A stretch of DNA of 41,085 bases, taken from positions 1-41,085 of the forward strand of contig JAWADS010000004.1 in assembly GCA_038998625.1 (NCBI GenBank). The letters are read 5' to 3'. Below, in pieces: positions 21,001 to 24,000 of this stretch. Each line of letters opens with the position of its first letter. Within the stretch, counting starts at the first letter, position 1. The position numbers were made by a program. The stretch comes from Candidatus Aenigmatarchaeota archaeon. GTDB taxonomy: Archaea > Aenigmatarchaeota > Aenigmatarchaeia > CG10238-14 > SCSR01.

Positions 21001-24000
21001 CGGATGGGTATCAAAAAGTAAAGGCATTTGGGCAATTCATTTTTCACCTTCACAATATGAAGAATTGAATAAAAAATACATATCGCTTATAAAAGAAGTT
21101 TTTGGCCTTGAAATGAAAAGAGGTACTAATTGGTATTATGCACATTCTAAACGAGTTTGTGAACTTTTATGGAAACTGGGATTAGATAAACATGCCAAAG
21201 AAAAAGAAATCCCTTCATGGGTATTTGAATTACCCGATTCTCATAAAAAAGAATTTATTCTTGGTCTTGCTGATGCAGATGGTTATTATTATAAAAGAAC
21301 AAAAGCAAATGGAAAAGAGCATATTCAACTTAGATTTGAAATGAGTAGCGAAAAGCTTATTCGGCAATTGAAAGTTTTGTGCGATTACCTTGGACTAAGA
21401 ACAAGTAATGTGTTATCAAGAAAGAGAGAAGTAAAACCACCTCATTCTAAACAAAAGCTAAAATTCACTTCTTGGGAGCTGAGAATTTATAAACTATATC
21501 AACTTAACGAATCCTTAGAAAAGTCAAGAGAGCGAAAAGGCATAGGATTCCTATGCGGATACAGGGGACCTACTAATTCTGAATTCTTTAAAAACTTTGG
21601 TTTTGCAAGAATCAAGTCTGTCAAATACTTAGGCGAAGAAGAAGTTTATGATATAACTGTAGAAGGTAGCCATAATTTTGTTGCAGAAGGTTTTCTTGTA
21701 CATAACACGGGTTCAGGTTCTATTCCAGTAGTAGCGGAAATTGCAAAAAAATTGGGAGCTTTGACAGTAGCTGTTGTTACATTGCCATTTAGCATGGAAG
21801 GAAGACATAGAATAGAAAACGCGAGATTTGGTTTAGAGAATCTGGAAAATTTAGTAGATACTTTAATCGTTATACCCAATGATAAGCTATTGGAAGTTGT
21901 GCCCGATGTTTCTCTAGCTACTGCTTTTAAAGTTTGTGATGAAATTTTAGTTAACGCAGTGAAAGGAATAACTGAACTCGTTACTAGGCCTGGCTTAGTT
22001 AATTTAGATTTTGCTGATGTTAAAGCTGTTATGAGCCAAGGAGGCTTGGCCATGATTGGTATGGGGGAGAGTGATACAGAAAACAGAGCAGTAGAATCTG
22101 TAGAAAAAGCTTTAAACAATCCGCTGATAACAGTAGAAATAGAGGGAGCGAAGGGGGCATTGGTGAATGTAAGTGGTGGGCCCGATATAACGATAAAAGA
22201 AGCTCAGAAAATAGTTGAAATGGTTTCTAGTAGATTGTCCGAAGATGCAAAGGTAATTTGGGGTGCTGTTGTAGATAAATCTTTAGGGGATAGCATTAGA
22301 ACATTGGTAATTGTAACTGGAGTTAAATCTCCACAAATCTTCGGACCAGAAAGACCATGGTCAAAAGAAAAGAAAAAAGATGTAGAAAAAATTTTAGGTA
22401 TAGAATTTTTAGAGTAATTTTTGTGATACAATGAAATTTAATATAAAAGAGTTTTTAGAGAAATATAAAAGAGTTTTGATAGTTGCCAAGAGGCCGGATA
22501 AAGAAGAATTGCTATTAACCATAAAAATTTGCCTTATAGGTATGGGTATAATTGGTTTCATCGGATTTTTAATTTATATGATATCAATTCTATTCATCGG
22601 GTGAAAAACTTGATATATACTGTAAAGACTGTTGTCGGAAGGGAAAATATAGTATTGGATATTATTGCGTCTAAAGCTAAAGCTGAAGGATTTAATATTA
22701 AAGCTTTGATCCATCCAGAAGAAATTAAAGGCTACATTTTTGTAGAGGGAGATATTAAAGATATAGAGAAATCAATACAATTAATTCCCCATGTAAGAGG
22801 CTTAATAAAAAAACCTGTTGAAGTTAGTGAAATCCAAAAATTTTTACAACCTAAACAAGTAGAAGTTGAAATAAATATTGGGGATTTAATTGAAGTTATA
22901 GGCGGACCTTTTAAAGGAATGAAAGGAAAGGTTACTAGATATGATAAGATAAAAAGAGAAGTTACCATAGAACCTTTAGAAGTTGCTGTACCAATACCAG
23001 TAACCATAAGTGTAGAATTTATAAAAGTTTTAGAAAAGGTTAGCAAATAATTATGCGAGAAACAGTTGCCTCGCTTATAAAAAAGGAATTGGGTATTGAA
23101 GTAGCAAAAATTTCTCAAGAAGACAAAGCCAAAGGAATCACATCCATAGGAAACTTAAAAATGGAGCAAGTAGTAAAAATAGCTAAACAAAAATTAAATG
23201 ATATGTTAACAAAAGATTTAAGAAAAGCCATAAAGGAAGTTTTAGGCACTGCAAATTCTATGGAAGGAATTTTAGTAGAAGGTAAGAGGCCGAAAGAGAT
23301 CATAAAAGAAGTGAATGAAGGAAAGTGGGATGATTTAATTTATTAAAGAATCCTTTTTTCCTCCAACACTATAGCTTCACACCCTGCATTCCTTATCATC
23401 AAAGCAATTTTAATTAATTCTTGTAAATTCTCTGATCTCCATGCGCTTGTTTGAATTTTTTCAGCTTTGATTTGCTCTAAAGCCCTGTGGACCTTTACCC
23501 TCAAAACATCTTTATTTTTTGGAATATCATAAATTAAAATTCCTGGCACAATTATTTTTAATTCCATTGCCTTTTTATATTTAACCTAGAATATAATTTT
23601 TAAAAGACCGCTTAGGCGGGAGGGTAAAATGGTTAACCCGAAGATATTAGAAGCAATAAAAGAATTGAGACAGAATTCTAAAAAGAGAAATTTTACCCAG
23701 AGCGTTGAGTTAATTGTAAATTTAAAAGAAATCGATATTAAAAAGCCTGAAGACAGATTTTCTGAGGATATAATTTTACCAAATGGTAGAGGAAAGGATG
23801 CAAAAGTTGTTATTTTCTCTGATGAAATAAAAGATTTAGGTTTGGATGTAGAAATCATCGATTCAGCAAAACTTCAAAGGATGAGTAAAAGGGAAGCAAA
23901 AAAGCTCGCTAGAGATGTGGATTTCTTTCTGGCAGAACCTAAATTAATGCCCACCATAGGAAAAGTTTTGGGTCAATATATTGGGCCAAGAGGTAAATTG

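Follow-up and report, generated by a model that had tools for sequence, protein, structure and literature searches.

Here we report that a hot-spring archaeon of the phylum Aenigmatarchaeota very probably carries a functional ribosomal protein uL11 made of the C-terminal domain alone, and that its working ribosome would, as judged from the gene and a model of the protein, have a stalk base without the uL11 N-terminal domain (NTD). The gene lies in a window of 41,085 nucleotides, by which we mean the whole stretch of DNA that was analysed. The NTD is a textbook part of the ribosomal factor-binding site and forms half of the thiopeptide binding pocket. According to the accessible part of one study, translational GTPases contact the uL11 NTD after L12 (PMC3505967).

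The reading best supported by the sequences is that the NTD was truly lost in evolution, because the gene leaves no space for the domain, the six reading frames of the genome contain no detectable NTD, the short form occupies the ancestral locus in many near-complete relatives, and the in-frame deletion can be read directly from a sister pair of genomes. A genome-wide survey's note had proposed such a loss and had seen it as shared by one clade. The loss is upheld by the lack of room, the missing NTD and the sister-pair deletion; the limit to one clade is not, since the comparisons indicate a recurrent loss in at least four families, with decayed NTDs as intermediates. It is this recurrence within the phylum that is new here. 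We regard the NTD-less uL11 as a known protein in a new natural form, and a search of full-text articles, with supplements outside its scope, returned no earlier report of a natural uL11 lacking the NTD.

Gene structure and locus

The stop-to-stop frame of the uL11 gene (Table 1) is only 100 aa long, with an in-frame stop three codons 5' of the ATG, so that there is no further in-frame coding upstream. Read-through from spt5, or a fusion with it, was ruled out because the two genes lie in different reading frames. The start of spt5 was placed at the TTG at 22610 by homology and by the end of secE at 22604; an earlier TTG is found at 22529.

Table 1. Features of the uL11 locus and of aEF2 in the window.
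Feature	Position	Strand	Evidence or remark
aEF2, all five domains including the C-terminal domain PF00679	5860..8070	+	domain scan
secE	22431..22604	+	PF00584, E 1e-4
spt5, NGN + KOW	22610..23050	+	Pfam; start chosen
spt5/uL11 junction: spt5 stop TAA 23048-23050, 2-nt spacer, uL11 ATG 23053-23055	23048..23055	+	sequence; frames differ
uL11, C-terminal rRNA-binding domain and archaeal C-terminal tail only, 97 aa	23053..23346	+	ORF, PF00298, fold
uL1	23629..24249	+	PF00687, E 5.8e-47
uL10 (P0), 248 aa	24253..24999	+	length common to NTD-bearing and NTD-less relatives
Stalk protein P1, unusual C-terminus in this genome	25005..25295	+	profile matches, comparison

The only Pfam family found in the protein was PF00298 (residues 5-70, E 1.4e-14, 54.7 bits versus a cut-off of 21.4), and PF03946 (Ribosomal_L11_N) gave no match to it even at E ≤ 1. 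The archaeal L11 equivalog model of NCBIfam, NF002232, was matched at positions 72-158 of 164 only and at 91.6 bits, below its cut-off of 162, and the protein thus fails as a full-length equivalog. In a sequence search of the PDB, residues 6-94 corresponded to residues 74-156 of Methanocaldococcus jannaschii uL11 and residues 6-95 to residues 74-157 of the Pyrococcus furiosus protein, and phmmer scored these two solved archaeal proteins at E 4.3e-19 and 1.9e-18, respectively. An AlphaFold2 model, computed from an input alignment of 32 sequences, had a mean pLDDT of 82.1 and a pTM of 0.71; its top Foldseek match was 5d8h_C (TMq 0.81, 49% identity over the C-domain). By its entry title, 5d8h_C is the uL11 of a M. 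jannaschii stalk-base crystal with thiostrepton. On alignment and model together, the 97-aa protein is read as the uL11 C-domain with the archaeal C-terminal tail, beginning at the interdomain linker; the survey's note had likewise matched it to the C-terminal, rRNA-binding domain. With the solved archaeal proteins (M. jannaschii 5col and 5d8h; P. furiosus 4v6u) it shares the C-domain, the C-terminal tail and the operon position, and it differs from them in lacking residues 1-73, which are the whole NTD plus linker and, going by the title of entry 5d8h, the part beside thiostrepton at the stalk base.

The gene occupies the orthologous position in a spt5-uL11-uL1-uL10-P1 cluster, as it does in relatives, with the exception of family f31, where uL11 is not adjacent to spt5, unlike in family f1. 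The order secE-spt5-uL11-uL1-uL10-P1 given by the survey's note was confirmed, with the addition of a 74-aa minus-strand ORF between uL11 and uL1. This ORF was seen only in the genome under study and in G020; in G006, G001 and G015, uL1 follows uL11 directly. Its family matches were limited to Cas2, a Cas2-like PaaX domain and TrmB, all under the curated cut-offs, and as a substitute for the NTD it was ruled out by its confinement to one genus. In nine NTD-less genomes of the family that were inspected, uL11 lies after spt5, in G041 with a 108-aa ORF between the two genes. The tail of P1 is altered in the genome under study, and the stalk may thus be unusual in more than one way.

Search for the missing domain

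The genome consists of 469,094 bases in 19 contigs and is 91.8% complete. As the survey's note had stated for E ≤ 1, PF03946 found nothing in its six frames (here 0 matches at E ≤ 10), and all 14 control genomes were positive. A profile of 30 NTDs from within the family was applied, with every filter switched off, to 8,402 six-frame stretches of at least 25 aa and gave a best E of 1.2. On decayed NTDs this profile reaches 21.7 bits (P0118), 12.3 bits (G214) and 6.3 bits (G104), and an NTD as decayed as those of G214 and G104 would escape it if encoded by a gene of its own. A broader profile that includes decayed NTDs, used without an independent control, gave best values of E 0.32, for a 30-aa frame, and E 0.59 in this genome; the latter match lies in the window and was rejected as the L7Ae gene. 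A second uL11 was likewise dismissed, the sole other PF00298 match in the genome (15.4 bits, contig 11) being uS10. Applied to the 10 NTD-less genomes of the family, the family profile yielded only three weak matches, all in unrelated longer proteins, of which two have a P-loop and resemble adenylate kinase and one, also read from its sequence, is a 379-aa enzyme. With three profiles of rising breadth, no NTD is detectable in the six frames of the genome, a sequence search being blind to an NTD decayed beyond recognition.

The absence of the NTD is not an assembly gap. The spt5-uL11 junction is identical in contigs of three public runs (X1, X3, X6). All three are hot-spring metagenomes. Contigs of X1 and X3, which may be the source data of this DNA, cover 22400-24300, and X6, taken from a different sample, has a contig over 22400-23568 with zero differences. 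The identical 97-aa protein is encoded on four contigs, the longest of 622,054 bp. Among the best 120 of 240 homologues, 27 are proteins of 95-112 aa with PF00298 only (sources JGI, Logan, ENA, NCBI and GEM); the remainder are 92 proteins with both domains and one 158-aa protein with PF00298 only. In the alignment all 27 short proteins start within a few residues of the linker, and together with five longer uL11 proteins they have 24 near-invariant columns. The named full-length neighbours among the homologues listed belong to Aenigmarchaeota or Aenigmatarchaeota (NCBI), and in the ESM Atlas 93 C-domain-only proteins form an archaeal cluster whose commonest taxon is Aenigmatarchaeota. Assemblies of 3, 5, 7 and 8 contigs are included among the 10 NTD-less genomes of the family.

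Distribution and number of origins

Across the phylum, 198 genomes with a completeness of at least 85% were compared. PF03946 exceeded its cut-off in 166 of them, gave weak matches only in four and no match in 28; in one genus it was missing from all nine genomes. In the own family, at the same completeness, it was found at E ≤ 1 in 29 of 40 genomes, of which presumably 28 are over the cut-off, because the sole match of G010 scores 18.3 bits versus the required 32.9. The tallies of the survey's note (166 of 198, 0 of 9 and 28 of 40) were thereby reproduced. A family sample of 61 genomes had PF03946 at E ≤ 1 in 51 and none in 10. The nine other family genomes without PF03946 all contained the C-domain over its cut-off, in open frames of 99-151 aa. 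Five short frames of relatives on which the survey's note had drawn were recovered at 105, 151, 103, 99 and 99 aa (G006, G030, G041, G001 and G020, respectively).

The C-domain was sought in 29 of the 32 phylum genomes without PF03946 over the cut-off (all except G106, G107 and G108). A C-domain-only gene was present in 18 of the 29, comprising nine genomes of family f1, seven of f31, one of f18 (G140) and one of f7 (G066). Three genomes (G010, G104, G214) have kept the N-terminal part in length without its Gly/Pro-rich loop. In one genome (G207) the gene is cut by a contig end, and in seven incomplete bins (G105, G122, G123, G138, G139, G146, G158) neither uL11 domain was found. The short form is also present in the less complete G020 and G015, which brings the total to 20 C-domain-only genomes in four families. 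Within f1 the short forms occur in genera g1, g2, g6, g7 and g16.

Spt5, the uL11 C-domain and uL1 were used for a quick maximum-likelihood tree, which placed the f1 short forms in two groups, g1 + g6 + g7 (SH-aLRT 89) and g2 + g16 (SH-aLRT 99), with the base unresolved. A single clade of all 11 f1 short-form rows was not rejected by the AU test (p 0.539), in which the group was named after the tree had been seen and the C-domain columns were part of the data. G066 groups with the NTD-bearing G067 and G068 of the same genus (SH-aLRT 100).

Among these three genomes is the sister pair in which the change can be read at the level of codons. The uL11 of G067 is 165 aa long and that of G068 166 aa (hand count), both with the canonical Gly/Pro loop and an NTD matched by Pfam at E about 1e-18; that of G066 has 99 aa. 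The DNA of G066 and G067 has the same spt5 stop, 5-nt spacer and ATG, and the opening three to four codons are kept, after which G066 skips straight to the codons that lie beyond the linker in G067. This is a single in-frame deletion of about 66 codons (hand count) in G066, which left both the ATG and its distance from spt5 unchanged. The same mechanism is plausible for the lineage of the window, where the first residues of uL11 can be aligned both with the linker and with the ancestral N-terminus.

Factor-binding site

The survey's note had considered co-changes in 23S rRNA helices 43 and 44 to be beyond checking. The 23S rRNA is not assembled in the genome under study (G000), nor in G020 and G006; it is assembled in 38 of the 61 family genomes, and 30 loci yielded the region of helices 43/44, five of which belong to NTD-less relatives (G001, G005, G030, G041, G054), so that the comparison could be made after all. 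Two conserved loop motifs of these helices, which presumably hold the equivalents of Escherichia coli A1067 and A1095, are kept in all five. Among the 30 loci no change in helices 43/44 was specific to NTD-less genomes, because the variants of the latter also occur in the NTD-bearing G002, G003 and G035. The substitutions in the NTD-less 23S rRNAs resemble the paired or triple covariations for which this RNA is known.

No compensating extension of uL10 was found either; across 30 loci the protein aligns over 248-277 aa, with 248-255 aa for the three loci of NTD-less genomes. Its open frames have lengths of 246-349 aa in the 57 untruncated matches. The genome encodes four translational GTPases, including a complete aEF2, one of the factors that dock at the GTPase-associated centre, and both uL10 and P1 are present.

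Discussion

In the ribosomes proposed here, the short uL11 would still bind helices 43/44 of the 23S rRNA and stabilise the fold of the GTPase-associated centre. The factors aEF2, aEF1A, aIF5B and aRF1 would dock on rRNA (helices 43/44 and the sarcin-ricin loop) and on the uL10/P1 stalk, and docking would proceed without the flexible uL11 NTD; we infer that these ribosomes have no substitute for it. The loss may be tolerated through relaxed selection on translation speed in archaea with tiny genomes. The NTDs that have kept their length without the Gly/Pro-rich loop in three other genomes look like a stage before deletion, which suggests that constraint was relaxed before the domain was deleted. 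Insensitivity to thiopeptides such as thiostrepton is a predicted side effect, because the title of the archaeal stalk-base crystal entry indicates that thiostrepton sits at the interface of NTD and rRNA.

The function of the NTD could have been kept in trans, by an NTD of very divergent sequence encoded in a small gene of its own, or by an unrelated protein at the stalk base. The near-noise scores of decayed NTDs with the family profile (G104 and G214) leave some space for this, as do the small ORFs nearby (74 aa between uL11 and uL1 in g1, 108 aa between spt5 and uL11 in G041). These ORFs are not shared among the NTD-less genomes, however, and the 74-aa ORF matches only other families, under their cut-offs; none of the three NTD profiles found a match, uL10 has no extension in NTD-less genomes, and the NTD of G066 disappeared by deletion at its original site, not by relocation. 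We therefore regard a function in trans as unlikely.

It is less probable still that the short protein has left the ribosome for another role and that the ribosome runs without any uL11. The accessible part of one study reports uL11 to be dispensable in E. coli (10.1101/755876), and neither domain of uL11 was seen in seven incomplete genomes of the phylum; against this, the gene stays in the stalk operon right behind spt5, the Foldseek alignment gives its product 49% identity with the C-domain of M. jannaschii uL11, and the archaeal C-terminal tail is retained. Least credible of all is an artefact or decay, that is, a misassembly, a miscalled gene, or a pseudogene with the real uL11 in the missing 8% of the genome. 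A bin of 19 contigs at 91.8% completeness gives some occasion for such doubt, but the genome has a single uL11 C-domain, the frame is intact and well conserved over the 24 near-invariant columns, contigs of other runs agree at the junction, and the same architecture recurs in 20 genomes, several of them nearly closed. A true loss of the NTD from a uL11 that still serves the ribosome thus remains the preferred reading.

Thiostrepton-resistant L11 mutants exist, and deletion of rpl12 in yeast is viable. Laboratory strains of bacteria and yeast that are deficient in uL11 or mutated in its NTD likewise live with an impaired or missing uL11; they pay a growth cost, whereas in the present case whole genera have the truncated form as their fixed wild type, and it has arisen several times. 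Since E. coli grows without uL11, as the accessible part of one study states for a knockout (10.1101/755876), and the genome is very small, the lineage could tolerate loss of the NTD. The same part of that study counted two-domain proteins as present only when both domains were found, and loss of uL11 is not discussed in it. Reduction of the ribosome in tiny genomes (CPR bacteria, insect endosymbionts, microsporidia, DPANN) likewise removes peripheral, non-catalytic parts, and the genome described here has 469 kb assembled. Published reductive surveys, in their accessible parts, list losses of whole proteins and describe no case in which, as here, a universal protein is missing one functional domain at the factor-binding site. 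In the accessible part of a COG-based survey, small archaeal genomes are said to retain all universal ribosomal proteins (10.1101/2021.01.31.429008).

More tentatively, and with the balance of probability somewhat against it, the NTD may be dispensable throughout the phylum. It would then have been removed in four or more separate events (in f7, f18, f31 and f1, the last of these being compatible with a single origin) and be decaying in at least three further genomes. The GTPases would be recruited and activated through a lineage-wide change of docking at the GTPase-associated centre, or else thiopeptide-producing neighbours would select for the loss.

Ribosomal_L11_N is among the ribosomal single-copy HMM hits collected with anvi'o for phylogeny, according to the accessible part of one study (10.1101/808410). 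If it also serves as a completeness marker, NTD-less lineages would score as slightly too incomplete. The finding is of interest to ribosome biologists mainly because the loss is recurrent, with natural intermediates. Closely related genomes give a natural series from a full through a decayed to a cleanly deleted NTD, and this series would provide ready alleles for the role of the NTD in the function of aEF2, aEF1A, aIF5B and aRF1 and in the antibiotic sensitivity of archaea.

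The proteins and rRNA that neighbour or partner the short, C-domain-only uL11 show several further peculiarities, in the window and in related genomes. The positions and sizes of the features are listed in the table.

Features in the window and at related loci
Feature	Location	Position	Strand	Description
FtsZ with intein	window	20192-22417	+	741 aa; Pfam Intein_splicing E 1e-16
74-aa ORF	window	23343-23567	-	between uL11 and uL1, on the strand opposite to both
End of P1 gene	window	25266-25322		altered tail region
108-aa ORF	L041 (G041)	1181-1504		between spt5 and short uL11; function not assigned
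23S insertion	L073 (G005)			125 nt
23S insertion	L075 (G001)			about 680 nt
23S insertion	L078 (G014)			65 nt
23S insertion	L079 (G059)			about 740 nt

The 74-aa ORF, which has weak Cas2-like matches below the cut-off (PaaX_M, E 0.048; TIGR01573 cas2, E 0.0043), is kept in the same-genus genome G020 and was not found between uL11 and uL1 in G006, G001 and G015; the 108-aa ORF was encountered in G041 only. Upstream, the intein within FtsZ carries a LAGLIDADG endonuclease. FtsZ fragments from G006 and G054 show the same insertion, which is missing from G020, G001 and G005.

Several relatives that have retained the N-terminal domain (NTD) of uL11 possess insertions in a loop of its C-domain (loci L028 of G009, L022 of G016, L008-L010, L014, L017 and L025), which range from about 10-20 to about 90 residues; the insertion in G009 comprises about 90 acidic or Ala-rich residues within a 262-aa frame. 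The archaeal bin G013 contains, alongside its archaeal copy, a bacterial-type L11 (L003 on contig 37; PF03946 at 95 bits, 153-aa frame), which is probably a contamination. The conserved loop motif of 23S rRNA helix 44 is broken or flanked by insertions in the four genomes listed in the table. Such insertions in the helix 43/44 region, which are probably rRNA introns, occur in NTD-less and NTD-bearing genomes alike.

The P1 gene of the window has a Gly codon (25266-25268) followed by 12 additional in-frame codons, and the canonical tail, SALFG plus stop, persists in the same frame 3' of these codons (25305-25322). Because the ninth additional codon is a TAA stop (25293-25295), P1, as read, ends in a different hydrophobic C-terminal tail. 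The altered end, which lies in the factor-binding motif of the stalk, seems to have arisen either through duplication and divergence of the tail or through a small insertion. This 96-aa variant is present in exactly the same form on five contigs; among the 28 P1 genes from 30 family loci, the other 27 have the canonical tail, and that of the window is the exception.

Throughout the family, uL10 (P0) has a length of only about 250 aa (window, 24253-24999; loci L082-L111), lacks an acidic C-terminal tail, and its match stops near position 255 of NCBIfam models that are 293-336 positions long. These features suggest that the stalk offers P1 fewer sites to bind than the stalks of well-studied archaea do.
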